A DNA stretch of 64,000 bases from Coriobacteriia bacterium (GTDB lineage Bacteria; Actinomycetota; Coriobacteriia; WRKU01). A program made the translations under genes and the position numbers. Shown here in pieces: positions 2,747-20,980 of this stretch (positions are counted from its first letter, which is position 1; every line of letters starts with the position of its first letter). Location of the stretch: the NCBI GenBank assembly GCA_009777935.1, contig WRKU01000003.1, positions 16,554 to 80,553 on the forward strand, in the 5' to 3' direction. The notes under the pieces are model-generated. The model ran no database searches, was not told the origin of the DNA, and saw nothing but the letters and a program-made list of their open reading frames with translations.

Positions 2747-2783
2747 GAGCATTCACGTTTTTTGTGGTATATTACCTATTATA

Positions 2784-2812
2784 TTAATATGTATTATATA
2801 TATAGGTATAAT
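2784..2812 (+). promoter_or_regulatory. putative metY promoter in a very AT-rich patch
   Basis: TATAAT at 2807-2812 with TTAATA 17 nt upstream (2784-2789), inside a 60-nt AT-rich block that stands out from GC-rich flanks. About 50 nt upstream of the metY ATG. Confidence 0.35.
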
Positions 2813-2850
2813 GCTATGTGCATGGTACTATAGGAACGGCCTACCAGTGA

Positions 2851-4149
<1,299 letters not shown>

Positions 4150-4179
4150 CTTGTTTTACCTGGCACGACGCTAACATGA

Positions 4180-4185
4180 TATAAT
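4180..4185 (+). promoter_or_regulatory. possible -10 box for the rhs gene
   Basis: TATAAT at 4180-4185, about 43 nt upstream of ATG 4229. No convincing -35 at 17 +/- 1 nt. Confidence 0.3.
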
Positions 4186-4228
4186 CACTGCGTTGTGTGA
4201 TTTTTGGCGGAGACATGAGGAGGGTTAC

Positions 4229-7200
4229 ATGCACAAGTATCAGCGCAAAGTGGCGCTGTTCCTTGTTGCTGTGTTTGTATGGTCGCTCATCCCTGCCCCT
4301 GCCATCGCTGCTGCGCGTGACACCGTCGTCAATGCACAAAAGGCCCGCTTTAACTATCCTGAAATAGTTACCATTGACACCGGTGAGCGCACACCGCGTG
4401 ACCCTCAGCTTCGCGCACCGAAACCTGACGTTGACAACGAAGAGTCTGAGCGCGAGTTCGGACCTCCCGTTGAAGTTCATGAATTTGAGAAGGTGTATCA
4501 GACCGGGCCTCGCAGTTACCGGTCTGTTTTTTCGCAAACGCCTAATACCTACAAAGACAGAAATGGCAGCGAACACGAAATAGACAACACCTTAATCGAG
4601 AAAGATCCTTTTCTCGCGTCCCCCTATCTGACCAATGCCGCCAACAGCTATGACGTTAGAATCCCTCTCGAAATTACTGAGCGCCGCCCCATTACGTACA
4701 CCAAAGATGGCTTTACCATTGAGCTTGCTCCTCTGAGCGGGGATTATTCGACTCCCGTAGCGCTTGATAACGCCGTGCTCTACAACAACGTCTATGAGCA
4801 CATGGATGTGGAGTACTTGGTGCGAGAGACCGGTGTCAAAGAGAGCATCATATATAATGCGCATACTGACATCACGTCGTTTTCCTATGCACTCAAAGCC
4901 CCGTCAAACCTCTCTGTGATGCAGGCCGGCAACACTATCGAGATGTTTGTGCCCGGTGATGTTTCTGGCGAAGACGAGCCGCTCTTTGTGATAACGGCGC
5001 CGTATCTGTTTGACGCTAACGGTGCGGTGAGCACCGATGCTACGATGACACTGAGCGGCGAGGGCATCAGCTACCGCGTTGACGTTGAGATCGATGAGCA
5101 GTGGCTCTCTGATCCGGTCCGCGTCTTTCCGGTCGTGCTTGACCCAACGGTGCAGACGTATGTTCCTACCTATGTTTCGCTTAATGAGATGGCGGGACGC
5201 GCGTGGCTCCAAGAACACGGATACGTGGGTTACGTTACCGAAGGGGTGTCAGGTGTCGTGGGTGGATATCTTGGCCGCTCTCGACTTATCTTGGGTCCGA
5301 CCGATGCACACAGCTCAATCCCTTCGGTGGCGCGCATCGATAAAGCAACGTTGCGCATGTATCAGTACAAGAGCATGTTTAACGGCGCACAGTTCGGTGC
5401 CTACCGTATCAGAGACCCTTATGACATAGATAGTATTACATGGGCGCAAGCCACCGGTCTTAACCGCGAGATTGCTGGTTCTGATGCTATTAGAACCTCT
5501 ATGATTGGTTGGCAAAACTTCGATATCACTGAAGCAGTCAAATACTGGAATGAAGGCCTTGCGCCAAATTACGGCATCATGATTACCCCTCTTGACGAAT
5601 GGCAAGAGGGAGGCGTGTTCATAACACCAGGTTCGTGGCCCGGTGTGGCAGGTCAAGGCAATATGACTACCGATATGCTCCCCTGCATACTCGTTGACTG
5701 GATAGTGCCCGATCCGGTGTCTCTCGAATATCCACTTAACAACACGACCATCCACCTCTATCCTCACATCGAAAGCCATATTAGCGGACGCCTTCGTTTT
5801 CACGGGGTATTGCCTGCAGGCGTGGCCAGACCAGAATCAATCGTTAGATTTGCTTTAAGTGACACGAGCAAAGGATATACCGGAAATGTGCAAACGAGCT
5901 ATTCACTGAAATTTCCCGACAGCCAAGGCTATGAAGGCAATTTTCCGGTTCAAACGACAAAATACCGTGACAAGCTCGGCAACTGGCAAGCGCCTGTTCC
6001 TTTTACTAACTTTACCTTTAATGATCGCTATCGCATCAGTGCTCGCGCGACAATCGATGGCGTCAACTTTGGCACGACAAGACAAAGCGAGGAGTTTGTT
6101 GTCTACCGGGTGCAGCAATACGATACCTTACAAAAGATTGCGAACTGGTACGGCATCCCGATTAACCAGATTGCCTTTGATAATCGCGTGCAAGATATGC
6201 TACTTGTCGAAAACAATACGCTCTTTATCCGCAATCCTCAGAGAAATGCTAATAACCCGTATAACCCTCCACCCTTAGATGATGAAGCAAAGCGCAGAAT
6301 TGACTCGATGCTTATGGGGCGCGGTCTTCACTGCGAATTCGGTTTTGAGCCCATTAACCTTAATACCGGCAACTTCTTTATGGAAGCATCTGACATTGTT
6401 CTTGATACCGGTGATGACTTTTTTGCACTTAACCGTACCTATAACTCGAAGAGGAGCAGGTATAACTCGGTCTTTGGGCGTGGCTGGGAGTTTGAATATA
6501 GCCAATCGCTTAGCAGGCGCGAAAACGGCAATATTACGTATGTACGCGGGGACGGCTCCGTTGTCGAGTTTGAGCGGACGAGTGATTTGAGCTACCGAGC
6601 CCCCGAAGGCTATCACTTGACGCTCACACCTATCGAGGTCGGCACCAAAAACTATACCAACGTCACCAGATATACGGTAGTAGGAGATCCGTGGTATAAC
6701 AACTACGCGCCCACCATCCAGACCATCCCTTACCCCGTCTATGAATACGAGATTGTCGACGGGGCAGATACGGCATATCGCTTCAGCAGCGCTGGCATGC
6801 TGAAGTCAGTGACAAACGTGCGCGGTGAGGCCACCACACTAGAGCACGACGCTAACGGCAACATCACGGCGATTATCTCACCGACCGGTCTTGTCTATTC
6901 GGTGCAGACGACCGCTGACGGCAAGATTGAGGTAGTCACGCTTCCTAGCGGCGGCACTTTGCGCTACGTCTATAACACGCTTGGAGACCTTGTTTCTTAC
7001 CTTGATGCGCTCGGTAATACCACGCACTATCGCTACGATACCGATCATCGCATGATCTCGTGGTCTAACGGTAACGGCGAGATGCAGATTGAAAATGTCT
7101 ATGATGATGAAGGTCGCATTATCGAGCAAATTGATGGCAACGGCGGGGTGTCTTACCTCTACTATACGATAGGCTCGACTGTCACTATTGATGCTGAGGG

Positions 7201-10200
7201 TAACAAGGTCACCTATCACTACGACGACCAATATCGCACGCTAAAAGTTGAGTACGAGGACGGCACACAAGAGACTAATACGTATGAGAATAACCTGCGC
7301 GCCTCTTCAACTGACCGTGGTGGTTTTACTACGCACTACGAATACGACAGCAACGGTAACGTCACGCGTGAGGTGCGCTTTGATGGCGCTGCGCGCACCT
7401 ACACCTACAATGAGTTTTCTCAACTCACTCAACTCATCGATTTCGACGGATATACTACCGAATATATCTATGACGGTGCCCAAAATCTCATCGAGCTTAT
7501 CGTTGCCGGCACACGCCAGATGTCTTATACCTATGACGACAAACATCGCGTATTGACACAGACCGACGCTAACGGAAACGTCACTGCTTTTACCTATGAG
7601 GGGCTGGGTAAAAAACCGAAGACGCGCACTGATGCGGCCGGTAACACCACCACATTTTTCTATGACAGTATGCAGCAACTCACCGCAGTTGAAGACCCTC
7701 TTGGTAATGTGAGTCGCATCTTCTATGACCAGATGGGGCTGAAGACTGGCGTGCAAAATGCGACGGGTGCCACTGAGCGCTACGAGTTTGACGCGGGCAG
7801 CAATCTCGTTGGCATAGTGGACGCCAACGATGACGCGAGCACCTACAGTTTTGACGCGCTCGGCAATATGACTCGTGCCGCTGATGCATATGGTGATGCG
7901 AGCACCTACACCTATGATGCCGTGGGCAACAGAATTGCGGCAACTGACGCCGATGCTCACACGACTCACTTTGCCTATGACGCACACGGAAACATCACCG
8001 GCATCACCCTTCCCAACGGTGCTGTTCAAACCTTTAGCTATGACGCACGCGATAAGGTGCTTGAGACGACTGACGCGCTCGGTGCGACCACGCGCTATAT
8101 CTATGATGAGCGCACCGGTCTTACCGAGAGCATAACCAACGAGCTCGGAGCTACCACCACCTTTGAGTACAGCGAAGTCGGACTGCTGCTTGCTGAAATT
8201 GACAGTACCGATGCGCGTACCAGTTATGAATATGATGAGAAACGCCAGCTCATCCGTATGGTAGAGCCAGATGGGCGTGAGACGATCTACCACTACGACG
8301 ACGTCGGTAACCTCACGCTGGAATACGATAATACCGCACGCGTTACCTCATACACCTACAACGAACTCAACCAACTCATCTCGGTAACCGATCCGCTCGG
8401 CAACACCACAACGTATTTCTATGACGTGGCAGGAAACTTAGCCGAGAGCATTGACGCGCTCGGACAGGTCACACGCTTTGCATATGATGGGGCAGCACAG
8501 ATCACTGCACTTATCGATGACCTTGGACATACCGTGCAGCTCGAATACGATGCGCTGGGCAACTTGGCTAAAACGGTAGATCAGCTGGGTCATGAGAGCT
8601 CGTTTACCTATGACGCCAATAATAAAATGGTGACCAGCACTAATGAGTACGGCGTAACAAGCACCTATCGCTACAGCGCAAATGAGCAGCTGGCTGAGTT
8701 TGTTGATCCCTTTGGCAACAGCGCATACTACACCTACAACGAACTTGGTCTTACTGAGCGCATAATTGATGCACATGAAAATGAGTACCACTTCGAATAT
8801 GACGCTGCCGGTAACCCTACGAGGCAGACCTCACCTAATGGCGCGACTGAGACGCGCGAATACGACGTGCTCGGGCGTCTGTTTAAGGGGGTGTCTGCCG
8901 CAGGATTAGTTACTACACACGCCTACGACAGCGAAAATCGCCCCATCCACTCCATCAACAGTCTTGGCGAAGAGATGACTTACGAATACGACGTCATAGG
9001 CAATCTCATAACCATTACCGACAGCTACGGTAGAGTGATGCGCTACACCTACGACCGCGCGCGCAACGTAGTGTCAGTTACTGAATTCGATGGAAATACG
9101 ATCCGTTACGAGTACGACTTAGGCGACAATCTTATCAAGGCGACTGACCCACTAGGGGTCGTGACCACCTACGAATACGATGCCGTCGGCAACCTCACTT
9201 CACAGGTCGATGATGCACGCCGCAGATGGCAATATACGTATGACACGCTCGGACAGTTAAGCGACATCAAAAACCCTGTGGGCGACATCGAGAGCTTTAT
9301 CTATGACGCCGCAGGAAACATCACCGAACACATCGATGGTAAGGGCAATGTGCGCACCATCGAATACGATGTAGCCAGCCAACCTATCGCTGAAGTAGAC
9401 CGGCGCGGCAATGCTGCCACCTACACCTACGATGAAATTGGTCGCTTAATTGGGCAGGTGGCACCAGATGGTGGCGCACAAGAATATCTCTATGACGCAC
9501 TCGATAACCTTGTGCGCGTCAAAGACGAACTCAATAACGTCACGATGTTTGAGTACGACAGTGTGGGCAACGTTACCAAGACTACCCAGCCGACCGGTGC
9601 TGCGACGCTCTTTGACTACGACATGAGCGGAAACGTCGTGAGTAAGACCGATGCGCTCGATAATGTCACCACTTTTTCCTATGACCGCGCAGGACGCCTT
9701 ACTGAACGTATAATGCCTAACGAGGCACGCTACCGCTACACCTACGACCTATTGGGTCGCCTTACCCAAGCAACTTCTCCCGGAGGGCTTTCTAAGGGAT
9801 ATACCTATTCGGCACGCGGCGATGTCATCAAGCAGACCGATCAGGCAGGTCGCTCGGTTACCTATACGTATGACACCATGCACAACGTCACGAGCGTGAC
9901 CGATGCGCTTGGTCACACCAGCACCTACACTTACGATAAGCACAGTAACCTTACCAGCACACTTACCCCGACCGGCTCGCAAACACGCTACTCATACGAT
10001 GCGCTTGACCGTCTCATAGGCGAGGTCAGTCCGAGCGGCCTTTCTACCAGAACGCTCTATGACCGAGCAGGGAACATCGAGCGTGTGACCCAGACCGGTG
10101 GGCGCACCACAAACTTTGCCTATGATGCAGAATCAAACATCACCGGTATTACGAATGCATTGGGGCACAAGCGCAGCTTTGAATACGACGTGGTCGGACG

Positions 10201-13066
10201 TCTTATCTCTGAAACCGATGCATTAGGCAAGACAAAATCTTATGAATATGATGCTCGCGGCCAGCTCTTAAGCATCCTCAATGAGCGCGGCGACAAGAAT
10301 ACCTTTACCTATGATGCTAACGGTAACGTTACCGCCACGCGTGATGCGCGCGGCGTCAAGATTGAATACAGCTATGACAAGCTCGATCGCCTCACCAAGG
10401 TCAAAGAGGATGGTGCTGACACCTCCTATACGTATGATGCGCTCGACAACTTGGCCAGCATTACCGACGGCAATGGCCATACTACTGCGTATACCTATGA
10501 TGAGGCGGGCAATCTCGCCTCTGTCACCAATCCTTTGGGCCAGACTCAGGCCTACGCTTATGACAGCGCACATCGCTTGAGCCGGTGGACGCAGCCAGAT
10601 GGTAGCGCCATTACTTATGACTACGATGCGATAGACCGGCTCACCGCACTTAACGTAGGCGATGAGGGTAGTGCACTCTACGCCTATGACGCAGACGGGC
10701 AGCGCACAACGATGAGTGATGCACACGGTGCCACAGAATATACGTATGATGAAGCCGGGCGCATGGCGACGATGACGACCAGTGAAGGTGAAGTCGTCGC
10801 TTATACTTACGACATCTACAGCAACTTAACTGAGCTTACCTACCCTGATGGCACGAGTGTACAGTACACGTATGACGCACTCGATCGCCTTATATCGGTA
10901 ATCGATCGCGCAGACGGTACCACCACCTACACCTATGATGGCAACGATAATGTGGTGCGCGTCGTGCGTGCTAACGACACCTCTGCTGCGCTCGAATATG
11001 ACGAACTTGACCGTATTGCAACACTCATAAACCACGGCGCTGACGGCAGCATCATCTCGCGCTTTGCCTACACCTATGATATGAGCGGCAATATCTTAAG
11101 TGAGCGCCGCACCCAAAATGATGTCGAGACATGGGCAGACTACGAATATGATGGGCGCGCTCAGCTTACTAAATCGACTGAAATTACCAATCTCGTCGTC
11201 ACTGAAACGACGTATAGCTATGACGGTGCCGGAAATCGTACCCGTCAAGAGATTAGGCGTGCTGGCTCCCTTGTAGACGCGATTGACTTTACCTATGACG
11301 GTGCTGATAAGCTCTTAGAGACGATAAGCACGGCTAATGGCACGACGACCTATGAGTACGATGAGCGCGGCAACCAGATTAGCAAGACGACCGCTGGCAG
11401 TATCGAGGAATATTCCTATGATACCCAAAACCGCCTTGAAGCAATCACGCGCGGCGGCACCCTGCTCTTTGCCGCCCTCTACGACGGGGACTCTAATCGT
11501 GTATTCACTGCCCAGCGCAATAGTGACGTGCACTGGCAAGAGATAACCGATGCGTCCGAAGAAGGCACATCTACTGGCAGTGGCCAAGATACTGAATCCG
11601 GTATCAACCGACCGTCGCTCTGGGCTTTTCTTTATGGATTTATGCACGGACTACTCCCGCGCTTTGTGCCTGACCCGCCTCACGGTGCTCTTACCATTCG
11701 CACCGGCTGGAGAGCCTATGAGATAGCCAACACCACGACCTATGAGCGTGTCGTGGATGCTGAAGATGGTAGAGGTGACACCGTCTTTATCCCTGAAAGT
11801 GTCGCTGATCTCTCTCGCAGGGATTACGAGATGGTGCGCTATCTCAACGACACCAACACTGAATACGCACGCACGCTCGTCGAATATGATCCACGTGGCA
11901 GAGCGCAGAGCATCTTTGAATATAGTCAAGGCCTTGAGCTGCTTGCTCATAGTAGTGCAGGGCGCGAGACCTATGCCTTTGATGGTAGAGGCTCGGTAGC
12001 TCACACGACCGATACACAAGGCAGATTACGGGCGTCTTATGAATACGACGTATTCGGGGCCGCTACCGTTACGGGGCTGAGCACCAACCCGTATACCTAC
12101 AACGCCGAGCGCACTGACCGCACCACCGGCATGCAATATCTGCGTGCGCGCTACTATGCGCCCGATGCAGGTCGCTTCATCACCGAAGACACCTATCGCG
12201 GGAAAGTCGGCGACCCCCTTACCCACAACCAGTATGCATATGTGGGCAACAATCCACTGCTCTACAACGACCCCAGCGGGCATATTTTCGGTGCAGTTGT
12301 CAATGCGGTCAAAAAGGTTGCAACGGCCGTCGTTACTACCGTCAAGAAGGTCGTGACCACGGTAGTTAATACGGTCGTTCGTGTAGTCAACGCTGTCGTC
12401 AATACCGTGAAAAATATCTATAATGCGGTGGTTGGCGGAGTGCAAGCAACATGGAATGGCGCCAAGCAGGCGGGCGCTACGATAGTAAACGGTGTGGTGC
12501 AAGGCGGTCAGTGGTTTGCCGACAAGGCAACCGCTGCCAGATATTGGGCAGTACAGCAACTCGAAGTCGCTCGCCGTGCCTTCTGCGACGGCCTTGAATA
12601 TGCTACAAAGCAGGCGAAAAATTTCGTGTCCAATGTTGACTGGGCGCGCGTCGGAGAAGGCGCTCTTAAGATTGGTTTGGCTGCCGTCACTGTTGTTGGT
12701 GCGGTTGGTGTAGTTGCCGCTTGTATTGCGACGGGTGGTGTGGCTCTTCCGCTTCTTGCGGCGGGAGCTGCGGGCACTGCCATTGCCTTTTCAGCGGGAG
12801 ATGCTATAGCTGGTGTGCAGGATGTTGGCTATGGCTTGCAAGGGAATACCGCTACGCCTGCGCTTGATCCAATCAAAGACGGACTATTTGCGGACAACCA
12901 AGACTTGTATGTTGGCGTAAAAGGTGCTGCCTCAGTCGGACTTTTTGTAACGGGCGTTGGTGCCGTAGCTGCTGCGCCAGCAGCAGGTGAGGCCATTGTT
13001 GGCCAAGCTCTTAAACCATTAACCAATGTCACAGTCGATCTTATAGATTCAGCATTTAGCAAGTAG
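4229..13066 (+). CDS. giant secreted Rhs/YD-repeat polymorphic toxin (WapA-like): signal peptide + unknown N-terminal region + LysM + YD-repeat shell + variable C-terminal tip
   Basis: The track ORF runs 4193-13066. I prefer ATG 4229 because GAGGAGGG lies 5-12 nt upstream. The N-terminus MHKYQRKVALFLVAVFVWSLIPAPAIA|AA looks like a Sec signal. There are dozens of YD repeats (..YxYDxxGNL/RxT..). The RHS core ends ...GMQYLRARYYAPDAGRFITEDTY...NNPLLYNDPSGH, followed by a 260-aa tip. Confidence 0.9.
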   Translation: MHKYQRKVALFLVAVFVWSLIPAPAIAAARDTVVNAQKARFNYPEIVTIDTGERTPRDPQLRAPKPDVDNEESEREFGPPVEVHEFEKVYQTGPRSYRSVFSQTPNTYKDRNGSEHEIDNTLIEKDPFLASPYLTNAANSYDVRIPLEITERRPITYTKDGFTIELAPLSGDYSTPVALDNAVLYNNVYEHMDVEYLVRETGVKESIIYNAHTDITSFSYALKAPSNLSVMQAGNTIEMFVPGDVSGEDEPLFVITAPYLFDANGAVSTDATMTLSGEGISYRVDVEIDEQWLSDPVRVFPVVLDPTVQTYVPTYVSLNEMAGRAWLQEHGYVGYVTEGVSGVVGGYLGRSRLILGPTDAHSSIPSVARIDKATLRMYQYKSMFNGAQFGAYRIRDPYDIDSITWAQATGLNREIAGSDAIRTSMIGWQNFDITEAVKYWNEGLAPNYGIMITPLDEWQEGGVFITPGSWPGVAGQGNMTTDMLPCILVDWIVPDPVSLEYPLNNTTIHLYPHIESHISGRLRFHGVLPAGVARPESIVRFALSDTSKGYTGNVQTSYSLKFPDSQGYEGNFPVQTTKYRDKLGNWQAPVPFTNFTFNDRYRISARATIDGVNFGTTRQSEEFVVYRVQQYDTLQKIANWYGIPINQIAFDNRVQDMLLVENNTLFIRNPQRNANNPYNPPPLDDEAKRRIDSMLMGRGLHCEFGFEPINLNTGNFFMEASDIVLDTGDDFFALNRTYNSKRSRYNSVFGRGWEFEYSQSLSRRENGNITYVRGDGSVVEFERTSDLSYRAPEGYHLTLTPIEVGTKNYTNVTRYTVVGDPWYNNYAPTIQTIPYPVYEYEIVDGADTAYRFSSAGMLKSVTNVRGEATTLEHDANGNITAIISPTGLVYSVQTTADGKIEVVTLPSGGTLRYVYNTLGDLVSYLDALGNTTHYRYDTDHRMISWSNGNGEMQIENVYDDEGRIIEQIDGNGGVSYLYYTIGSTVTIDAEGNKVTYHYDDQYRTLKVEYEDGTQETNTYENNLRASSTDRGGFTTHYEYDSNGNVTREVRFDGAARTYTYNEFSQLTQLIDFDGYTTEYIYDGAQNLIELIVAGTRQMSYTYDDKHRVLTQTDANGNVTAFTYEGLGKKPKTRTDAAGNTTTFFYDSMQQLTAVEDPLGNVSRIFYDQMGLKTGVQNATGATERYEFDAGSNLVGIVDANDDASTYSFDALGNMTRAADAYGDASTYTYDAVGNRIAATDADAHTTHFAYDAHGNITGITLPNGAVQTFSYDARDKVLETTDALGATTRYIYDERTGLTESITNELGATTTFEYSEVGLLLAEIDSTDARTSYEYDEKRQLIRMVEPDGRETIYHYDDVGNLTLEYDNTARVTSYTYNELNQLISVTDPLGNTTTYFYDVAGNLAESIDALGQVTRFAYDGAAQITALIDDLGHTVQLEYDALGNLAKTVDQLGHESSFTYDANNKMVTSTNEYGVTSTYRYSANEQLAEFVDPFGNSAYYTYNELGLTERIIDAHENEYHFEYDAAGNPTRQTSPNGATETREYDVLGRLFKGVSAAGLVTTHAYDSENRPIHSINSLGEEMTYEYDVIGNLITITDSYGRVMRYTYDRARNVVSVTEFDGNTIRYEYDLGDNLIKATDPLGVVTTYEYDAVGNLTSQVDDARRRWQYTYDTLGQLSDIKNPVGDIESFIYDAAGNITEHIDGKGNVRTIEYDVASQPIAEVDRRGNAATYTYDEIGRLIGQVAPDGGAQEYLYDALDNLVRVKDELNNVTMFEYDSVGNVTKTTQPTGAATLFDYDMSGNVVSKTDALDNVTTFSYDRAGRLTERIMPNEARYRYTYDLLGRLTQATSPGGLSKGYTYSARGDVIKQTDQAGRSVTYTYDTMHNVTSVTDALGHTSTYTYDKHSNLTSTLTPTGSQTRYSYDALDRLIGEVSPSGLSTRTLYDRAGNIERVTQTGGRTTNFAYDAESNITGITNALGHKRSFEYDVVGRLISETDALGKTKSYEYDARGQLLSILNERGDKNTFTYDANGNVTATRDARGVKIEYSYDKLDRLTKVKEDGADTSYTYDALDNLASITDGNGHTTAYTYDEAGNLASVTNPLGQTQAYAYDSAHRLSRWTQPDGSAITYDYDAIDRLTALNVGDEGSALYAYDADGQRTTMSDAHGATEYTYDEAGRMATMTTSEGEVVAYTYDIYSNLTELTYPDGTSVQYTYDALDRLISVIDRADGTTTYTYDGNDNVVRVVRANDTSAALEYDELDRIATLINHGADGSIISRFAYTYDMSGNILSERRTQNDVETWADYEYDGRAQLTKSTEITNLVVTETTYSYDGAGNRTRQEIRRAGSLVDAIDFTYDGADKLLETISTANGTTTYEYDERGNQISKTTAGSIEEYSYDTQNRLEAITRGGTLLFAALYDGDSNRVFTAQRNSDVHWQEITDASEEGTSTGSGQDTESGINRPSLWAFLYGFMHGLLPRFVPDPPHGALTIRTGWRAYEIANTTTYERVVDAEDGRGDTVFIPESVADLSRRDYEMVRYLNDTNTEYARTLVEYDPRGRAQSIFEYSQGLELLAHSSAGRETYAFDGRGSVAHTTDTQGRLRASYEYDVFGAATVTGLSTNPYTYNAERTDRTTGMQYLRARYYAPDAGRFITEDTYRGKVGDPLTHNQYAYVGNNPLLYNDPSGHIFGAVVNAVKKVATAVVTTVKKVVTTVVNTVVRVVNAVVNTVKNIYNAVVGGVQATWNGAKQAGATIVNGVVQGGQWFADKATAARYWAVQQLEVARRAFCDGLEYATKQAKNFVSNVDWARVGEGALKIGLAAVTVVGAVGVVAACIATGGVALPLLAAGAAGTAIAFSAGDAIAGVQDVGYGLQGNTATPALDPIKDGLFADNQDLYVGVKGAASVGLFVTGVGAVAAAPAAGEAIVGQALKPLTNVTVDLIDSAFSK
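6104..6235 (+). other. LysM peptidoglycan-binding domain within the Rhs protein
   Basis: YRVQQYDTLQKIANWYGIPINQIAFDNRVQDMLLVENNTLFI matches the LysM pattern (Y.V..GDTL..IA..Y.v....l...N.l....l..Gq.L.I). Confidence 0.7.
12038..12283 (+). other. RHS repeat-associated core end (autoproteolytic DPxG[LH] boundary)
   Basis: YEYDVFGAATVTGLSTNPYTYNAERTDRTTGMQYLRARYYAPDAGRFITEDTYRGKVGDPLTHNQYAYVGNNPLLYNDPSGH. DPSGH is encoded at 12269-12283. In Rhs/WapA proteins this motif demarcates core from toxin. Confidence 0.85.
12284..13063 (+). other. Rhs C-terminal variable (toxin) domain, no recognisable enzymatic motif; Val/Thr/Asn-rich helical repeats followed by Gly/Ala-rich hydrophobic segments
   Basis: The domain opens with IFGAVVNAVKKVATAVVTTVKKVVTTVVNTVVRVVNAVVNTVKNIYNAVVGGV... 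It continues with GALKIGLAAVTVVGAVGVVAACIATGGVALPLLAAGAAGTAIAFSAG and GAASVGLFVTGVGAVAAAPAAGEAIVG. I saw no nuclease, deaminase or ADP-ribosyltransferase-type catalytic signature. Confidence 0.6.
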
Positions 13067-13085
13067 TTGAATAGGCGAAGAGAAG

Positions 13086-13451
13086 ATGTTTATCCCTATG
13101 CCAGCATCAGTACAAAAAAGGATTCAGTTACCTGAGGCGAGTTGCTTGTGCGATTCCTGCAAGAGGGATGCCTGTCATGTTATCTTGGATTATAAAAGCA
13201 AGGGATTGTGGTTAGGAGCACCCATTTGGGGACACATTACTTCTCGAAAATACTATCTAGTTTGTGATGCGTGTGAACAGGAACGACTGTTGTTACCTCA
13301 AGAAAAATACCTTGTTTACGAAAAGCAGCTGGTTCCATGGCTTGAGCGAGATGGCTTGAGAGCTCTTGCAATTATCTTTTTGCTCACACTTTTATTTATG
13401 GCAGGCATATTCGTAGTTGCTTTCATAGATTTCATGCTTTCTGCGGGATGA
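13086..13451 (+). CDS. putative cognate immunity protein: zinc-ribbon-like (CxxC...CxxC) domain with C-terminal TM helix
   Basis: Starts 20 nt after the rhs stop. 121 aa with CDSCKRDAC...CDAC cysteine pairs and the C-terminal TM segment ALAIIFLLTLLFMAGIFVVAFIDFML. A clear paralogue lies at 15659-16009. Confidence 0.65.
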   Translation: MFIPMPASVQKRIQLPEASCLCDSCKRDACHVILDYKSKGLWLGAPIWGHITSRKYYLVCDACEQERLLLPQEKYLVYEKQLVPWLERDGLRALAIIFLLTLLFMAGIFVVAFIDFMLSAG

Positions 13452-13472
13452 AAGATGTAGACTGCTTATGTG
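13401..13472. repeat. 72-bp cassette-junction repeat, copy 1 (3' end of immunity gene plus downstream)
   Basis: GCAGGCATATTCGTAGTTGCTTTCATAGATTTCATGCTTTCTGCGGGATGAAAGATGTAGACTGCTTATGTG. It has 5 mismatches in 72 (hand alignment) to 15959-16030 and a more diverged copy at 19559-19630. Confidence 0.85.
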
Positions 13473-14037
13473 GGCTTGCTTGTATTTTGCACTTTCAAGA
13501 ATTCCGGCATTAGGCAATAGGCTGCGGGTAGTTATTCTTATAACCATATTCACACTGCTTGTCGTTGTCCTAAGTGCAGCACCACCCGAAAATCTATTTG
13601 TGAGCTTCAAGACACCAGAAAATGCATTTCGCTATGCTTATAATGGAAGTATTGAGGGAGTGCTTTCCGGCAGAGACTCAAGTATGGTGATTTTCGAAAC
13701 CAATCAAGGAGTTTCAAGTTGTGTTTTTCCGAGAACCAGAAATGGATACAAGCTATCAAGCATTTTTTCAGTCAATAAGAGAACACAGAGGAATTTAAAT
13801 GGTGCACCCCAGCTTCTCCAGGTGCATCATGTGAGAAAAACGAATGATTACTATATTGTTGTAGCTTTTTATCTGGCAAGGACTGAAGTTGAGGTATTTG
13901 ACGAAAGTGACAATAGGTTAGATTTTGATATCATCAGAAGTACAAGTAGTGGGCAAATCATCTACATCTATGTTGAGGGATTAACCGATGGTGCTTATAT
14001 GCTAGTCGAGGATAAAAGGATACCTCTTTTTTGGTAA
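13468..14037 (+). CDS. hypothetical membrane-anchored protein
   Basis: 189-aa ORF in the low-GC island. N-terminal TM segment (VVILITIFTLLVVVLSAA) followed by a soluble domain. No family recognised. Confidence 0.5.
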   Translation: MWACLYFALSRIPALGNRLRVVILITIFTLLVVVLSAAPPENLFVSFKTPENAFRYAYNGSIEGVLSGRDSSMVIFETNQGVSSCVFPRTRNGYKLSSIFSVNKRTQRNLNGAPQLLQVHHVRKTNDYYIVVAFYLARTEVEVFDESDNRLDFDIIRSTSSGQIIYIYVEGLTDGAYMLVEDKRIPLFW

Positions 14038-14119
14038 ATCTGGTCATCTGCGTTGAAAAAAACATGAGAGGTCTCCGCTTCTTGGCTATATGGAAAATGC
14101 TCGACAAAGGGGAGTTTAG

Positions 14120-14625
14120 GTGTTTATGTCCACACACAGATTGTTCATCATCATACTGACCGTCTTATTCGCGCTTTTGTCAATAACTACCTACTATCTT
14201 TGGTATGCGCCTATCAACACCAACCGCATCCGCCACAACGATGCATTTGACAAAGAGACGAACACCGCCATCATAAATCTAATAAATCAGGCTATGGGAG
14301 TACAGTTCAATAGGTACGGCAGAGCAATGGCAGATGATATATTCACGGAAAAATTTCAACAATCCCTTGATGAGAACAGGCCTCAGCTCTACAATAGAGG
14401 ATTTTTTATTGGATTGATAGAGACTATATGCAGGGATTAGTACGTGTTGACAGTGGATATTCCAAAAGTCATTTGCAAGAAATTAGCAATATCGATGACG
14501 ATGATATGTTTTATGTAAGAGTTAATGTGACACGTCCTTGGTGGGATAGTGAGCAGTACGATTTCTTTATTACTCGCAGCAAGACCAATATTTTTCAAGT
14601 ATCGCTTATCGAGGTTGGTAGATAG
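14120..14625 (+). pseudogene. hypothetical membrane-anchored protein, probably split by a frameshift near 14428-14440
   Basis: ORFs 14120-14440 (106 aa, N-terminal TM segment LFIIILTVLFALLSITTYYLW) and 14428-14625 (65 aa) overlap by 13 nt in different frames. Together they would give a ~165-aa protein organised like ORF 21484-21927. Confidence 0.4.
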
Positions 14626-14937
14626 GCCAGAGTATTGAAGGCTCAAGAAACTGGAAAGCAGCAAGAATTCAAGTAGATGAGGTGATAGTTGCACTTGTTT
14701 TTCACAAAATACGGTTTTCTCATTGCAGTTCACTCATCCATTCTTTTCACATATGCTGAAAATTGGAGCGTGGCCCTTTTTTGGCCTATGCTTTCTAGCA
14801 TCACTCTATCCTCTGTTCAGCTACGTTGGTTTGTTGCGATGAATGTTGCCAGTGACCTTGCTGATTTCACTAAGCGGCAGCATCACATGGCTGAATCTCC
14901 ACTAATGTATCCTGGCAGTTGGTAGAAAGGATGAGCA

Positions 14938-15339
14938 ATGACAGTTACAAGGTTTATTCTTATGGTATCTTGCATTATGCTACTAGCTGGATTGAGCATG
15001 AGTAATACAGCATGTAGGAATATCGATGAAAGCGTGTTGGAGAAGAACGAAAGAATCCTAAAAAGGACTTTCCTTTGGCACTCAAAAGAGGATACGGATA
15101 TGCTAGCCGAGGTATTTACCAAATTGGAGGTTGACATTGAGAGTGCGAAAATTGAGGAGAAAGTAAGGCGCAATGGAAATCTTTATGGATATATTGTTCG
15201 AATAACTGATACCACAAATAATGTATATTATTTGAAGATAGGCAAGGATTTGTTTTGGAAGTTTAGCATTTGGGAAAACTCTTTGGATGGGAAGATGATT
15301 TATATGAACGGCGCCGATATGGTTTTCCCGGAAGACTAA
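14938..15339 (+). CDS. putative secreted protein or lipoprotein
   Basis: 133 aa. The N-terminus MTVTRFILMVSCIMLLAGLSMSNTAC has a signal-like hydrophobic core followed by Cys, but the lipobox is imperfect. RBS AAAGGA precedes the ATG. Confidence 0.5.
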   Translation: MTVTRFILMVSCIMLLAGLSMSNTACRNIDESVLEKNERILKRTFLWHSKEDTDMLAEVFTKLEVDIESAKIEEKVRRNGNLYGYIVRITDTTNNVYYLKIGKDLFWKFSIWENSLDGKMIYMNGADMVFPED

Positions 15340-15393: not shown

Positions 15394-15657
15394 TTGGCAT
15401 GGAAAGTAGGCCAACTGATGATTGAAACACAAAATTATATTTTCTATACCAACATTAATAAGAATTTTGGCCACAGCGGTGCCGCTGCAGTTGGAACCTT
15501 CGCAACAGGAATTGGCGCTGTTGTCGCTGCGCCTGGAGCAGTTTCATCAACTATCGGTAGCCTTGATCCGCAAGCATCAAATACTCTTGTTAACATAACT
15601 CTTATTACCATTGGACTTGGGGGAGATCCTATCGTTGATAAGATCTCAGATCGATAA
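15394..15657 (+). pseudogene. orphan remnant of an Rhs C-terminal toxin tip (homologous only to the last ~45 aa of the main tip)
   Basis: GAAAVGTFATGIGAVVAAPGAVSSTIGSLDPQASNTLVNITLI parallels GAASVGLFVTGVGAVAAAPAAGEAIVGQALKPLTNVTVDLI at the end of the rhs product. There is no Rhs core upstream. It is followed after 1 nt by an immunity paralogue. Confidence 0.55.
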
Positions 15658-15658
15658 C

Positions 15659-16009
15659 ATGGGTACTTGGAAAAAAAGAGTTCAATTGCCTGAAGACGAG
15701 TTAATCTGTGATTCTTGTGACGAGAGTATCTGTAGCGTTGTGCTAGACTATACGCTCAAAGGGATTTGGCAGGGACCAATTCTTTTTGGGCGTATCGTTT
15801 CTCGTGAGTATTATCTAGTTTGTAACACGTGCAAACAAGAGTGGCCACTGCCACCAAAAGAAAGATATCTTGCCTATGAAAAACAGTTAATTCCGTGGAC
15901 TGAAAGACAAGGTTCGCAGCTTATTGCAATTTATTTCCTGTCTGCATTAGGATTTATAGCAGGCATGTTCGTAGTTGCTTTCATAGACTTCATGCTTTCT
16001 GCGGGATGA
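15659..16009 (+). CDS. paralogous zinc-ribbon/TM immunity protein (orphan cassette)
   Basis: MGTWKKRVQLPEDELICDSCDESICSVVLDYTLKGIWQGPILFGRIVSREYYLVCNTCKQEW...GMFVVAFIDFMLSAG is collinear with the 13086-13451 product, with the same Cys pairs and the same C-terminal TM segment. I chose ATG 15659 rather than the track start 15611. Confidence 0.7.
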   Translation: MGTWKKRVQLPEDELICDSCDESICSVVLDYTLKGIWQGPILFGRIVSREYYLVCNTCKQEWPLPPKERYLAYEKQLIPWTERQGSQLIAIYFLSALGFIAGMFVVAFIDFMLSAG

Positions 16010-16030
16010 AAGATGTGGACTTCTTACGTG
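15959..16030. repeat. 72-bp cassette-junction repeat, copy 2
   Basis: See 13401-13472. Both copies cover the last ~50 nt of the immunity gene plus ~20 nt downstream. Confidence 0.85.
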
Positions 16031-16129: not shown

Positions 16130-16166
16130 TTGTCAAAAGGTCGCCATAAGTGGTAACATTTTGACA
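16130..16166 (+). promoter_or_regulatory. putative leaderless promoter and inverted-repeat operator of the abiE-like operon
   Basis: TTGTCA (16130-16135), an 18-nt spacer, TAACAT (16154-16159), then 6 nt to the A of ATG 16166, with no SD. The 8-bp inverted repeat TGTCAAAA (16131-16138) / TTTTGACA (16159-16166) brackets the promoter. Confidence 0.45.
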
Positions 16167-16693
16167 TGACCCAATACGATGACATATACGAAATCGGTGC
16201 TGACAATTACGGACTCGTCACTATTGCAGAAGTGAAAAAACTTGGTATCTCACGCAAAGTGATGAATGCGCTAACAGCGCGTGGGCGTCTATTGAGACGC
16301 GGATACGGCGTTTACAAGCTAGCTCACTATATCCCGACACCCTACGATGTCTATGCGGAGGCTGTTGCGCTTGTTGGGTCGAATGCCTACCTCTACGGTG
16401 AATCTGTTATCTCGATGCTTGAACTAGCTCCCACAAACCCTGCTCGAATATTTGTGGCAACACCTGCGCGCGTGAGGAAGACATTGCCGGAGCATATCAT
16501 TGTAATCAAGGCGGATTATCAACCAACTAACTACGATGGAGTTCCCTCTCAAAGCGTGACCGATGCGATTCGTGCCAGTATGAAATCAGTGATGCCTGAT
16601 AGGCTAATAGATACAGTTGAAGAAGCCCGGCGCCAGGGATACATAAAAGAGACTGAAAGAATCGAACTTCTTGATGAATTGGATGCGTCATGA
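16166..16693 (+). CDS. AbiEi-family (type IV toxin-antitoxin) antitoxin-like transcriptional regulator
   Basis: 175 aa. The N-terminus ...YGLVTIAEVKKLGISRKVMNALTARGRLLRRGYGVYKL is the AbiEi_4-type winged HTH pattern. It overlaps the next ORF at ATGA. Confidence 0.65.
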   Translation: MTQYDDIYEIGADNYGLVTIAEVKKLGISRKVMNALTARGRLLRRGYGVYKLAHYIPTPYDVYAEAVALVGSNAYLYGESVISMLELAPTNPARIFVATPARVRKTLPEHIIVIKADYQPTNYDGVPSQSVTDAIRASMKSVMPDRLIDTVEEARRQGYIKETERIELLDELDAS

Positions 16694-17514
16694 CCAAGAC
16701 ACCAAACAGCAGAAGGAATCTTGACATAGCGATTGAAAGAGCTTTTGGAACAGGCGATAATTTCTTGCGAACAAGAACCCTTATTGCCAATACAATCGTC
16801 GGCCAGATGCTTCCATCAGGTGTTGTGAAAGGTGGCAGTTCTTTGAAGTTTCGCTGGGGCAATGAAAATGCACGTTTCACGAATGACCTAGACACAGTCC
16901 GAGGTACTGCTCTTACAGAATTTGAAGAACAGATGGCGGAGCTACTGGAGAAAGGGTGGCATGATTTCACCGGCAGACTTGTGGCTAGAGCGCCCGCAAC
17001 ACCAGAAGGTGTTCCCACTCAATACGTGATGCAGCCATTTGAGGTAAAGCTTTCCTACAAAGGAAAGGCGTGGCTAACAGTAATTCTTGAAATCGGACAC
17101 GATGAGATAGGCGATGCCTATGAGCCCGAGTATACAATCTCTGAAAGCATCGTCCAAATATTTTCGAAAATCGGACTGCCTAGCCCGGCTCCCATGCCTT
17201 GCATGGCACTTCATCATCAAATCTCACAGAAGCTTCATGGACTCAGCGAAGAAAACAGCTCGCGTGCCCATGATCTCATAGACCTGCAACTGATTGTCAA
17301 AAATGAAAACATCGATTATGCGGCTACGCGACAGGCTTGCGTGAGGCTCTTTGCATATCGAAATCTTCAGGCTTGGCCGCCAATCATCAAGAAAAAAGAA
17401 AACTGGGGTGAGTTATACGATGCCCAAAAGAACAATCTTTCTGTGCTGGACAGTGTCGATGAGTCTGTTGTCTGGACAAATAAGCTGATCAAGAGAATAG
17501 ACGCTGTGGCATAA
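16690..17514 (+). CDS. AbiEii/AbiGii-family nucleotidyltransferase toxin-like protein
   Basis: 274 aa. VKGGSSLKFRWGNENARFTNDLD fits the GG(S/T)xL...R.S.D(L/I)D nucleotidyltransferase core of AbiEii. It is translationally coupled to the upstream AbiEi-like gene. Confidence 0.65.
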   Translation: MTKTPNSRRNLDIAIERAFGTGDNFLRTRTLIANTIVGQMLPSGVVKGGSSLKFRWGNENARFTNDLDTVRGTALTEFEEQMAELLEKGWHDFTGRLVARAPATPEGVPTQYVMQPFEVKLSYKGKAWLTVILEIGHDEIGDAYEPEYTISESIVQIFSKIGLPSPAPMPCMALHHQISQKLHGLSEENSSRAHDLIDLQLIVKNENIDYAATRQACVRLFAYRNLQAWPPIIKKKENWGELYDAQKNNLSVLDSVDESVVWTNKLIKRIDAVA

Positions 17515-18122: not shown

Positions 18123-18272
18123 ATCGGCTAAAAAGTATTCTGTATTCCCGTCCATTCTTAGATGCACGAAAGAACAAATCGTTGAGACATCTGAAGTCTC
18201 ATAGCGACAACCCTTCGAGTGTTGAAATAATAGCACCACCTCGCACCTTGGCAACTGAATAGGTGACACACT

Positions 18273-18560
18273 AACCCGTATACCTACAACGCCGAGCGCA
18301 CTGACCGCACCACCGGCATGCAGTATCTGCGTGCGCGCTACTACGCACCCGATGCAGGCCGCTTTATCACCGAAGACACCTATCGTGGGGAATCGGGAGA
18401 TCCATTGACGCATAACCAGTATGTCTACACCGCCAACAATCCGCTGCTTTATAGCGACCCAAGCGGGCATATGTACAAAAAGCTATGCACGAGAAAGCCC
18501 AATCTGGAGACCATTCTTGGCTTCAGGATCTCAGCAAAATATATTGGGATGCATACATGA
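18273..18560 (+). pseudogene. orphan Rhs core-end fragment with a different, very short C-terminal tail
   Basis: 18273-18470 aligns base for base with 12086-12283 of the main rhs gene. The first 50 nt are identical and there are about 6 mismatches in the first ~113 nt. It encodes NPYTYNAERTDRTTGMQYLRARYYAPDAGRFITEDTYRGESGDPLTHNQYVYTANNPLLYSDPSGH, then only 29 codons to a stop. The frame is closed by TGA 18264-18266 just upstream. Confidence 0.8.
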
Positions 18561-18627: not shown

Positions 18628-19335
18628 ATGAGGCGGATGAACAGAATAATGGAAGGCATCAAGCGCAAGAAATGGGCAGTAGCAGCATACGTTGCAGGAA
18701 CGTTTATAGTGTCGTTCACGCGGCTTTCCTATGCACTCATTAATCCCGATAGCAACATTCTTGCAGCAGCTACTGATGCATCTTTTTTTGCGGTAGGGTT
18801 GTTTGTTCTTTTTGTTTTTGGCACACTGCTTTTTCCTGTTGGTCTGTATCTTTGGATGCGTCCGATAACGCTCGGAAAGTTTTTTAAGGAGCTTGCTCTG
18901 GGACTCATGCTTGCTCTTGGTGCGGTGTTTTTGTTTGGCATAGTTTTGGGAGCTCTCGCGATATTTGTATTTTGGGATACAGAAGTGGCGGGGATGCATG
19001 TTATTGAAATAATTGCTACGCTAGGTGCCATAGTATCTGCAGCGTATATTGTCTGCATAGTAGCACGTATGGCTGCACTGGGCTCAGTTGCTGCTCGTAT
19101 TTCATGGCGTACATTTCTTGCTGTATTGGCAATGCTTGTGGGCGGAGATATTTTGCAGGCAATACTTGATTTTCTGCCGAAAAATGTTTTGTTTGTAATT
19201 ATAAATGCGACGCTAACGACAACTTTTGCAACATTCACATTTGTCGTTGCGGTTATGTTATGTCGCAAGTATGACGGTTCAAGAAATGGACAAATGAATG
19301 CCCCCGAGTCGATAGTGGAAGCAAAAATAACCTAA
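18628..19335 (+). CDS. polytopic membrane protein (about 6 TM), candidate immunity protein; paralogue of 24543-25208
   Basis: 235 aa and very hydrophobic. Shares collinear motifs with the 24543-25208 product: LYLWMRPI(T/A)L..F.K, SAY(I/V)(V/I)C, L(D/E)(F/Y)LP(K/N)NV. Lies immediately downstream of the orphan Rhs tip. Confidence 0.65.
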   Translation: MRRMNRIMEGIKRKKWAVAAYVAGTFIVSFTRLSYALINPDSNILAAATDASFFAVGLFVLFVFGTLLFPVGLYLWMRPITLGKFFKELALGLMLALGAVFLFGIVLGALAIFVFWDTEVAGMHVIEIIATLGAIVSAAYIVCIVARMAALGSVAARISWRTFLAVLAMLVGGDILQAILDFLPKNVLFVIINATLTTTFATFTFVVAVMLCRKYDGSRNGQMNAPESIVEAKIT

Positions 19336-19414: not shown

Positions 19415-19609
19415 ATGAAACTTGAAGATGGGGCCTGCCAGAAGCTTTGTGTGTGAAGCCATTGAACAGCAAGTGAGGTGGACGATGAGAAGAAGTTTTT
19501 TACTCGCGCTGTATACTTTTGGGGCTGGGGATGTTATAGCGGGAGCGCAAGATATATGGTGGGTATATTCGTAGTTGCCTTCATAGTTTCTATGTTTTCT
19601 GCGGGATGA
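19415..19609 (+). pseudogene. degenerate third copy of the zinc-ribbon/TM immunity gene
   Basis: ATG 19415 opens MKLEDGACQKLCV*. Downstream fragments (..EQQVRWTMRRSFLLALYTFGAG.., ..GIFVVAFIVSMFSAG*) match the middle and end of the 13086 and 15659 products but are in different frames. Ends in junction-repeat copy 3. Confidence 0.5.
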
Positions 19610-19630
19610 AAAACGTAGACTCCTGACGTG
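19559..19630. repeat. 72-bp cassette-junction repeat, copy 3 (diverged)
   Basis: GTGGGTATATTCGTAGTTGCCTTCATAGTTTCTATGTTTTCTGCGGGATGAAAAACGTAGACTCCTGACGTG aligns with copies 1 and 2. It shares ACGTGCTAA with copy 2. Confidence 0.75.
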
Positions 19631-20197: not shown

Positions 20198-20980
20198 TTG
20201 GTACGTACCATCCACCTAGATAGTTCCTTGCCTGAAAACAGCAACTATTCTTACGAGCAAGTTGCATTTTGGTCGATGCCTGAAAACAGGAACTACGCTT
20301 GTGAGCAAATCTCTCTATGGCTAGACAAGCTGTTGGCTGAAAATTTTGCCGGAAAAGATATCATCGAACAGCAGCTTGCCGGAGCAGCCTATAAAGTGTA
20401 TGGCGAGTATGAATATATCTCTGTGATTTTTGCGCCGAAGACTAATGAACGTTATCCGTATCGTACGCGAGTTCCAGTAACGATGGATGCTAGTCAACCC
20501 AACGGAAACATAGTAACGTTTTTGTTGCATGTTGCAGATGGTTTTATTAATGAAATGCAAATATATAACGCAGATGGAACAGATATAGATGGCAACTTTG
20601 ATGTCTCGAATGTGAGCTATTTATTCGCCGAAGAGATAGCTTTGGGGAATGCTATGACCGTTGAGCAGGAAATCGCAGACGACAAAAGGCGTCTAGGGAA
20701 ATTAATGGAGGAGAAAAAGGTGCCATTAGGTGCAAGACCGTGGGTGGCATACCTTGTACTCGTATTCGGAGTAGCTGCTTTGCTGGCAACAGTTTTTCGT
20801 TATCCTTACTACCCCTATTACTCAATTATGCTCGGAATATTTGCAATCTACTTTTCTCTGTTTGTGTGGCTCAATCCACAGGCAGAACCGAGACAAAAAC
20901 TGATAGCAAAAGTTGCAGCAGTACTTGGTGTCGTGACACTCCTTGCAATCGTTGGATATTGGCTGATAGGTTACGTATGA
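20198..20980 (+). CDS. fusion protein: unknown N-terminal ~170-aa domain + C-terminal copy of the ~90-aa three-TM module
   Basis: TTG start with AGGGGTGA upstream. The N-terminal part contains a 16-aa duplication (PENSNYSYEQVAFWSM / PENRNYACEQISLWLD) arising from a diverged 48-bp tandem repeat at 20231-20326. The C-terminal MEEKKVPLGARPWVAYLVLVFGVAALL...NPQAEPRQKLIAKVAAVLGVVTLLAIVGYWLIGYV is paralogous to the ORFs at 22762-24421. Confidence 0.6.
   Translation: MVRTIHLDSSLPENSNYSYEQVAFWSMPENRNYACEQISLWLDKLLAENFAGKDIIEQQLAGAAYKVYGEYEYISVIFAPKTNERYPYRTRVPVTMDASQPNGNIVTFLLHVADGFINEMQIYNADGTDIDGNFDVSNVSYLFAEEIALGNAMTVEQEIADDKRRLGKLMEEKKVPLGARPWVAYLVLVFGVAALLATVFRYPYYPYYSIMLGIFAIYFSLFVWLNPQAEPRQKLIAKVAAVLGVVTLLAIVGYWLIGYV

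Follow-up and report, generated by a model that had tools for sequence, protein, structure and literature searches.

We describe here an Rhs polymorphic toxin gene and the small gene immediately downstream of it, located within a stretch of 64,000 nucleotides (the window) of contig WRKU01000003.1 from a Coriobacteriia bacterium (assembly GCA_009777935.1), which is a monoderm actinobacterium. The hydrophobic region in the tip of the Rhs protein, i.e. its variable C-terminal part, was found to be homologous to the pre-toxin module of LXG and Gram-positive Rhs toxins (E 1e-8 to 4e-24), and nothing follows this module in the window where a C-terminal toxin domain would stand. As this widespread module normally stands ahead of an enzymatic cargo, we regard the tip as a cargo-less delivery module, and not as a wholly new toxin family. 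Taking the sequence evidence together, we lean towards viewing the Rhs protein as a contact-dependent toxin of the WapA kind, exported by Sec and associated with the cell wall (LysM), with a tip that is non-enzymatic and inserts into membranes, and the protein of 121 amino acids (aa) encoded downstream as the cognate immunity protein. The coordinates of all features are collected in Table 1.

The Rhs open reading frame (ORF) on the + strand (4193/4229-13066) is intact and encodes, from the ATG at 4229 to the stop codon at 13064-13066, a protein of 2945 aa that is identical to the product of the gene caller. A Sec-type N-terminal signal peptide can be read off the sequence (MHKYQRKVALFLVAVFVWSLIPAPAIAAA), and PF05593 matches 44 stretches of the protein (E 1.5e-234) alongside DUF6531 and TEN_YD-shell, identifying it as a protein with many RHS/YD repeats. 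The conserved core ends in NNPLLYNDPSGH at 12248-12283 (PxxxxDPxG type), followed by a variable tip and an adjacent small partner gene. The tip differs from that of the homologue P0006 although the core ends of the two are near-identical, as is characteristic of Rhs proteins; the DPSGH motif at this point is presumably the boundary of both autoproteolysis and recombination. The same combination of signal peptide, YD/Rhs repeats, variable C-terminal toxin and downstream immunity gene occurs in WapA of the monoderms Bacillus subtilis and Streptococcus suis, the characterised tips of which are, as far as is known, nucleases, in contrast to the apparently non-enzymatic tip of the window.

We searched with the tip exhaustively, using phmmer, in 1.84 billion cluster representatives (50%-identity clusters; cut-off E ≤ 1e-3), and identified matches in 121 other representatives (best E 4e-24), nearly all of which fall on tip residues ~115-245. 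A word-indexed search with the domain profile recovered 8 fragmentary LXG pieces, and a look-up of the clusters for names gave none that were informative. The relatives share the consensus R..G...G......G..AIVATGGAATP.V.....G....FG.SD..EG.QD.YYG..GD....A.NPIRDT.F.GN...Y, the core of which (R..G...TGGAATP...FGxSDxxEGxQDxYYG...NPIRDTxFxGNxxxY) is recognisable in the tip, with deviations at two near-invariant positions, the E of 'EGxQD' being Ala (Ala176) and the N of 'NPIRD' being Asp (Asp195). The domain is carried by more than 100 protein clusters, and the family itself was not found in Pfam or NCBIfam. It resembles PT-TG (PF14449), an alpha-helical pre-toxin domain with a TG motif that lies N-terminal to Gram-positive toxin modules (PMC3113570, PMC13483458), but PF14449 was not listed for the tip (E ≤ 1), for 10 homologues (E ≤ 0.01), or among the 25 most frequent families of 101 homologues and 34 segments. 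Thus, the domain appears to form a separate and apparently unannotated family.

The relatives place this domain internally, with medians of 241 residues before it and of 245 residues after its conserved Tyr (n = 115 homologues for the latter), versus 51 aa after the same Tyr in the window, of which ~35 still belong to the conserved domain. Among 101 scanned relatives, 53 have an N-terminal LXG domain, and the C-termini include TNT, NADase_NGA, WHH/LHH/AHH/GHH/GH-E/HNH, colicin-DNase, EndoU, Endonuclease_NS_2, Ntox30 and ParB-like toxins. At 12 loci in GTDB genomes (Lachnospiraceae, Ruminococcus, Pseudobutyrivibrio, Eubacterium, a Collinsella pseudogene and others) the order is LXG or Rhs, then the domain, then a cargo of at least 127 aa, and a soluble immunity candidate directly follows the toxin gene at 10 of the 12, the exceptions being L010, where none was detected, and L013, where the candidate lies further away. 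The Rhs-borne relatives P0004, P0005/L003, L005 and P0006 have, as in the window, amphipathic repeats straight after DPSGH and the junction 'FVC...NVDWxRV'. In P0006 the Rhs core end and the linker (QWFAD...) are almost identical to those of the window, but the protein runs on into a PD-(D/E)xK-like domain. We additionally identified orphan cassettes (the downstream ORF at L003:~2035-3078, in a Eubacterium metagenome-assembled genome, and P0015/P0049) that start at MQKAIEEAKKFVCTT..NVDW, which points to the 'FVC...NVDW' junction, immediately ahead of the hydrophobic domain, as a recombination point at which domain and cargo are swapped as one unit.

The tip after DPSGH (260 aa, 12284-13063, Rhs residues 2686-2945) is composed of three parts: seven 11-residue amphipathic repeats, a linker helix, and a Gly/Ala/Val-rich hydrophobic domain of ~130 aa. 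An initial annotation of the sequence had noticed a quasi-repeat after DPSGH, and this stretch, rich in Val, Thr, Asn and Lys, proved to be a run of hendecads: self-identity over residues 1-77 is maximal at lag 11 (0.45), and the hydrophobic-moment power has a single sharp peak at 3.65 residues (11/3; 196 versus 45 ± 13), which none of 2000 shuffles reached. An origin of the hendecads in a DNA tandem repeat was rejected, Tandem Repeats Finder having detected nothing in the stretch, and the repeat is therefore one at the protein level. The equivalent regions of some homologues match Apolipoprotein, ApoLp-III and Phasin models. Separately, a different polymorphic toxin family on metagenome contigs L016-L020 (~4-158 of the tip) shares only the hendecad stretch (VVNAVKKAAVTVVNTVKK) straight after the junction motif. 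Beyond it these toxins run on into a His-rich domain that is unrelated (NHPGNMPFPHDHEWKNGERG), and their immunity-like gene encodes a soluble Cys-rich protein. The 11-mer stretch therefore looks like a mobile linker element.

The two long hydrophobic stretches also reported in the initial annotation were recovered by Kyte-Doolittle analysis at residues 126-185 and 214-240; the 19-residue means are at least 1.6 at centres ~135-160 and ~225 (windows over roughly residues 126-170 and 216-240), and both stretches are of transmembrane (TM) length. The AlphaFold2 model of the tip is all-helical (mean pLDDT confidence score 64; predicted TM-score, pTM, 0.48). The suggested likeness to glycine-zipper or pore-forming effectors holds in so far as this is an all-helical, membrane-type sequence, but GxxxG is absent from residues 126-186 and 212-246, which contain small-xxx-small runs only, and a strict (G/A/S)xxxGxxxG zipper was not found.

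The initial annotation had seen no enzymatic signature, and none was detected here. The tip contains 0 His, 4 Glu and 2 Cys, with Ala, Val and Gly making up half of its residues, and gave no enzyme match in Pfam, NCBIfam, PADLOC or a PDB sequence search. Foldseek of the AlphaFold2 model against PDB, a check that had been proposed with the annotation, returned generic helical bundles or noise, with no significant fold match and no enzymatic fold. It might be supposed that the tip is an enzymatic toxin with a fold too divergent or too novel to be recognised, given that a lack of matches is not proof and that the AlphaFold confidence is moderate. We consider this very improbable, in view of the composition of the tip and of the fact that the repeats, the linker and the conserved, non-catalytic pre-toxin domain together cover all but ~15 of its residues.

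As first annotated, the protein encoded downstream is 121 aa long, contains two CxxC pairs and carries a TM helix at its C-terminus. We rejected the idea that the tip reads through into this ORF or is fused to it, the two being in different frames and separated by a TAG stop and a spacer of 19 nt (and not of 20 nt, as originally given). The 121-aa start is favoured over the 101-aa start of the gene caller, because residues 10-17 are kept in the second copy of the gene and because the hhalign coverage by a related protein on contig L015 (see below) begins at residue 11. The cysteines are arranged as C22xxC25 (plus C20 and C30) and C60xxC63, and residues 90-120 form the hydrophobic C-terminal helix. 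In the AlphaFold2 model (pLDDT 79) there are four beta-strands, with the CxxC pairs in the loops between strands 7-15/30-42 and 47-60/66-69, and a short helix precedes the long helix 90-120, which reaches the C-terminus. Both CxxC pairs are invariant in the two window copies, and BLASTP and hhalign place them in register with the CKNC and CLEC motifs on L015, as in a zinc ribbon; a MAFFT alignment misplaces the last Cys. Pfam zinc-ribbon models gave below-threshold scores only, and the ribbon-like domain is a putative zinc binder. The identity of the partner as an anti-sigma (ZAS) protein was rejected, since there is no zf-HC2 match and the N-terminal domain is beta-rich, not helical. Lys/Arg residues precede the TM helix and nothing comes after it, from which the zinc ribbon is most likely cytoplasmic and the protein tail-anchored.

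We found no family match for this candidate in Pfam, NCBIfam or PADLOC, and Foldseek of its model against PDB gave generic helical bundles or noise. A 5.8-billion-protein index contained no relatives beyond those on its own contig, which is also present in ENA (ERZ27257348, k141_3978677), nor did any emerge when metagenomes were scanned for the pattern of the three-sequence alignment. With three sequences known and no database family, the immunity protein appears to represent a new and very rare family. The proposal of a new toxin-immunity family made in the initial annotation therefore seems apt for the immunity protein, but not for the hydrophobic region of the toxin, which is homologous to a pre-toxin module of known LXG/Rhs type.

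The main alternative to a membrane-inserting toxin is that the tip is a disarmed stub, the cargo of which was lost by recombination or deletion, leaving a non-toxic remnant beside a 121-aa protein that has another role or is itself a leftover. Such a history would fit with the presence of cargo in almost all homologues, with the recombination debris that fills the locus (an orphan tail, a deletion remnant and an orphan Rhs core end), with the replacement of two near-invariant residues, and with the other short-tailed homologues, in L022, L024, L025 and L026, which are apparently fragments or truncations. However, the best whole-tip relative is P0004 (E 4e-24; 38% identity across tip residues 6-244). 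This orphan C-terminal Rhs cassette likewise stops soon after the domain, and sits on an independent metagenome contig of 4.7 kb, L015. A 129-aa ORF with CxxC...CxxC and a C-terminal TM helix starts 10 nt after the stop codon of this tip, and 99 columns of its product can be aligned to the window partner, the Cys pairs matching in register (BLASTP E 3e-4; hhalign 92%, E 6.6e-7). The recurrence of a cargo-less tip with this rare partner on another contig, at 38% and 27% identity respectively, indicates long-term retention. Further, the orphan module downstream in the window ends at the position equivalent to the tip end, with the same short tail and an adjacent immunity gene; this second full copy of the immunity gene (15659-16009), already noticed in the initial annotation, is 59% identical to the first, and a dN/dS of ~0.15 between the two indicates purifying selection on the partner; and the 2945-aa ORF shows no sign of disruption. 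From the L015 recurrence, the orphan tail with its partner and the dN/dS, we argue that the cargo-less design has been maintained and is not a fresh truncation, and we think it unlikely that the tip is a stub.

Tip and partner were found adjacent in the window, in its orphan module and on L015, and nowhere else. This co-conservation supports the downstream zinc-ribbon/TM protein as the cognate partner of the tip, in which case an immunity function would be the expected one. A metagenome scan with the tip and P0004 returned a truncated P0004-like copy (L021) and the repeat-sharing family L016-L020, and nothing else. Other short-tailed homologues (P0011, P0064, P0041 and P0007) were rejected as examples of cargo-less toxins, being contig-end fragments or orphan pieces. 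A type VII secretion system (T7SSb) locus, L023:1-5814, encodes EssC, WXG100, DUF4176 and a YwqH-like Lap, together with an LXG toxin (P0115) that has the hydrophobic domain. The P0115 gene is complete and ends in an odd, frameshift-like tail of 58 aa, with a soluble helical protein encoded downstream; it may be a frameshifted or a cargo-less LXG toxin.

To judge from its homologues, the hydrophobic domain of the window corresponds to the 'middle domain' of LXG toxins (TelA/TelB class; PMC12478183), the comparison with TelB having been made by description and position. In cytoplasm-acting LXG toxins, this middle domain is described as an uncharacterised, amphipathic region that AlphaFold predicts poorly and to which DUF4176 chaperones bind; the same authors speculate that it mediates membrane translocation, much as the T domain of diphtheria toxin does (PMC12478183). 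The homologous domain likewise lies ~250 residues into LXG toxins, between the LXG and toxin domains, has amphipathic and hydrophobic helices with low AlphaFold confidence, and occurs in L023 in a T7SSb locus with a DUF4176 gene. The window differs in that delivery would be by a Sec-exported Rhs cage and not by T7SS and LXG, in that no toxin domain follows, and in that the partner is membrane-anchored and not soluble.

The location of the domain where a translocation function has been proposed (PMC12478183) raises the question of whether the tip is a translocator with a short payload, in which the C-terminal residues ~210-260 are carried to the cytoplasmic face and act there or are caught by the zinc ribbon, toxicity resulting from translocation and not from a stable pore. 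The positive-inside rule, which puts the zinc ribbon of the immunity protein in the cytoplasm, is consistent with this, and the toxin tail is the part kept beside the orphan immunity gene. Yet the 51-aa tail is itself hydrophobic and forms part of the conserved domain in homologues, it has no recognisable peptide-toxin motif, and translocation by this domain is a proposal only; we regard a short payload as decidedly unlikely.

The sequences show the anatomy, the homology, the lack of a cargo, the conserved pairing of the genes and purifying selection on the partner; toxicity, membrane permeabilisation, immunity, topology and metal binding are inferred. Under the membrane-inserting reading that we favour, the Rhs protein would be exported by Sec and held at the wall via LysM, and its tip would be cut at DPSGH and remain caged until delivery. 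As 11-mer amphipathic repeats typically lie on membrane surfaces, the 77-residue hendecad helix could lie on that of the target, while the hairpin (helices ~126-149 and 157-185, joined at the turn TGGVALP) would insert together with the third hydrophobic helix. The inserted module, probably oligomeric, would then leak ions and dissipate the membrane potential, and the tail-anchored 121-aa protein, with its zinc ribbon in the cytoplasm, may disarm the toxin after insertion, either inside the membrane or on the cytoplasmic face. A wider proposal, into which the short-payload reading grades and which we offer as a tentative possibility, is that Gram-positive polymorphic toxins, both LXG and WapA-like Rhs, rely on the pre-toxin module to cross the target's cytoplasmic membrane, and that a translocator stripped of its cargo has here become the toxin. 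The tail-anchored zinc-ribbon proteins would then be a new class of immunity protein, acting from the cytoplasmic side by plugging the channel or by catching the chain as it emerges.

For the passage of nucleases and NADases of LXG and Rhs/WapA toxins across the target membrane, translocation by the middle domain is the sole proposal (PMC12478183). The locus constitutes a natural minimal construct for this question, in which the module occurs alone, would be delivered by an Rhs cage, and has a candidate for a dedicated membrane-anchored inhibitor. Depolarisation of membranes by the tip alone would directly demonstrate insertion of the module into bilayers, and would constitute an evolutionary link between translocation domains and pore-forming toxins. 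The locus moreover defines a domain conserved in more than 100 protein clusters, and a new, very rare family of immunity candidates.

Comparison with known membrane toxins places the locus as probably akin in function to, but outside of, the described families. Tse5 (RhsP1) of Pseudomonas aeruginosa similarly has an Rhs cage around a hydrophobic, non-enzymatic, depolarising tip, and a membrane-bound immunity protein, Tsi5 (PMC12744356); the Rhs cage is considered a way to keep such a tip harmless in its producer (PMC12744356). It differs in its delivery through type VI secretion in a diderm, in contrast to Sec and the cell wall in a monoderm, and in the architecture of its immunity protein. 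No Rhs or Tse5 chain was among the PDB matches of the tip or of the domain profile (E ≤ 10), the presence of the C-terminal (CT) part in the deposited chains being unconfirmed. The LXG toxins EsxX, TelE and TspA are likewise non-enzymatic, membrane-depolarising Gram-positive polymorphic toxin domains, against the secreted form of which membrane proteins protect, and membrane-bound immunity is known for Tse5/Tsi5, EsxX/ExiCD and TspA/TsaI (PMC12744356). These toxins are, however, defined by an extended (G/A/S)xxxGxxxG or GxxxGxxx(G/S/T) motif (PMC12744356), whereas the window tip lacks GxxxG, and immunity to them is conferred either by polytopic proteins (ExiCD, TsaI) or by soluble ones of the DUF5085 family (ExiAB, TipE), whereas the candidate of the window is a zinc ribbon with a single TM helix. 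As far as sequences allow us to say, the locus would work like Tse5- and EsxX-type membrane toxins but stands outside those families, having no GxxxG zipper and no similarity to them among its PDB matches.

We also noted a resemblance of the domain to alpha-pore-forming toxins of the ClyA family (Hbl-L1, NheB, AhlB and MakA). The only PDB matches of the domain profile, all weak, are to their membrane-spanning hairpins (Hbl-L1, E 0.019; AhlB residues 183-231, E 0.33; MakA; NheB), with which it has the turn motif 'IVxTGGxATPxV' in common, and the AhlB match falls within the experimentally defined TM hairpin of residues 176-201 and 212-234 (PMC6602965). The NCBIfam model HblD is matched by 9 of 34 domain sequences (best E 1e-4), but not by the tip. 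The E values are sub-threshold (in PDB no better than 0.019), the tip of the window is itself unmatched, and the overall folds show no significant match (AhlB at Foldseek rank 38, E 5.2). The similarity, which may be convergent or compositional, is suggestive only.

Several points weigh against the tip being a membrane-inserting toxin with its own immunity protein. The AlphaFold model of the tip has only moderate confidence. For the tip of the window itself the resemblance to ClyA-family hairpins falls short of significance, and it could be compositional; the two substitutions at near-invariant sites could reflect decay or a changed function. The sole independent second pair, on L015, was found in a sample that belongs, as a sibling, to the same ENA series. 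We know of no precedent for a single-pass zinc-ribbon immunity protein, and immunity proteins against pore-formers are usually polytopic (PMC12744356).

Table 1. Features of the Rhs locus and of related orphan sequences, in window coordinates.
Feature	Coordinates	Strand	Description
Rhs/YD-repeat polymorphic toxin gene	4229..13066	+	Sec-type signal peptide, LysM domain, DUF6531, 44 RHS repeats; 2945 aa
DPSGH, end of conserved Rhs core	12269..12283	+	Same motif ahead of the homologous tips P0004, P0005 and P0006
Seven 11-residue amphipathic repeats (VVxxVVxxVKK type), tip residues 1-77	12284..12514	+	Periodicity; predicted single long helix (AlphaFold2 helix 2-63)
Linker helix QWFADKATAARYW...FCDGLEYATKQAKNF, tip residues 78-115	12515..12628	+	Near-verbatim in the Rhs tip of P0006 (nuclease-like cargo)
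Hydrophobic pre-toxin domain, tip residues 116-245	12629..13018	+	Conserved NVDWxRVGxGALK...ATGGxxxP...AxGxxDxxxGxQDxxYG...NPI[RK]DxxFxxNxxxY
Predicted TM helical hairpin, tip residues 126-185	12659..12838	+	Helices ~126-149 and 157-185; turn at TGGVALP
Third hydrophobic helix GAASVGLFVTGVGAVAAAPAAG, tip residues 214-240	12923..13003	+	Hydropathy and AlphaFold2; also kept in the orphan tail
Immunity candidate 1, 121 aa	13086..13451	+	Four-strand zinc-ribbon-like domain, short helix, C-terminal TM helix 90-120
79-nt block, 3' end of immunity gene	13394..13472	+	92% and 86% nucleotide identity at 15952-16030 and 19552-19621
Orphan remnant, last ~58 codons (15430-15603) of a diverged toxin tail	15430..15657	+	Stops 1 nt short of immunity copy 2; 41% identity with tip residues 198-251
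Immunity candidate 2, 116 aa	15659..16009	+	59% identical to candidate 1; dN 0.32, dS ~2.2
Deletion remnant	19422..19609	+	Toxin fragment (FGAGDVIAGAQDI, frame 2) joined out of frame to the last ~18 immunity codons (GIFVVAFIVSMFSAG and stop)

Downstream of the Rhs gene the G+C content drops from 0.57-0.60 to 0.40-0.45 over ~13 to 26 kb, in a region that is dense in small ORFs and Rhs debris and has the usual look of an orphan toxin/immunity island. Orphan pieces were identified at 15430-16009, 18269-18472 and 19422-19609. The last of these had been annotated initially as a decayed third copy of the immunity gene (19415-19609), and was re-interpreted here as a deletion remnant, in which a toxin fragment is joined to an immunity 3' end. 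The 79-nt block comprises the last ~18 immunity codons and ~20 nt beyond, and is 86-92% identical between its occurrences although synonymous sites elsewhere in the gene are saturated, suggesting that it is probably a cassette or recombination boundary or a gene-conversion tract.

Another orphan Rhs core-end fragment (18269-18560, +) is 86% identical over 205 nt to 12082-12285, and contains DPSGH followed by a short, different tip (MYKKLCTRKPNLE...). It is succeeded by a gene for a 235-aa polytopic membrane protein (18628-19335, +), and together they may represent a further membrane-toxin/immunity cassette in decay. Several small ORFs occupy the interval between the two immunity copies (13468-15339, +). 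Their products, of 189 aa, 106 aa and 133 aa (the last lipoprotein-like), start with signal or TM segments and have no family match in Pfam or NCBIfam; they may be further orphan immunity genes. A complete AbiEi/AbiEii pair (16166-17514, +; type IV toxin-antitoxin/abortive infection; PADLOC E 7e-53 and 3e-104) lies inside the Rhs orphan island.

Finally, we identified an array of paralogous small-protein genes on the + strand (20198-20980, 22762-23031, 23060-23395, 23462-23743, 23752-24069 and 24167-24394), the products of which have ~3 TM segments each and the motif PLGARPWVA...YPYYP...PQAEPRQKL. These may be a second membrane-immunity family; on L015 the immunity gene is immediately followed by a homologue, at 4072-4350 (tblastn E 2e-12 and 5e-9).

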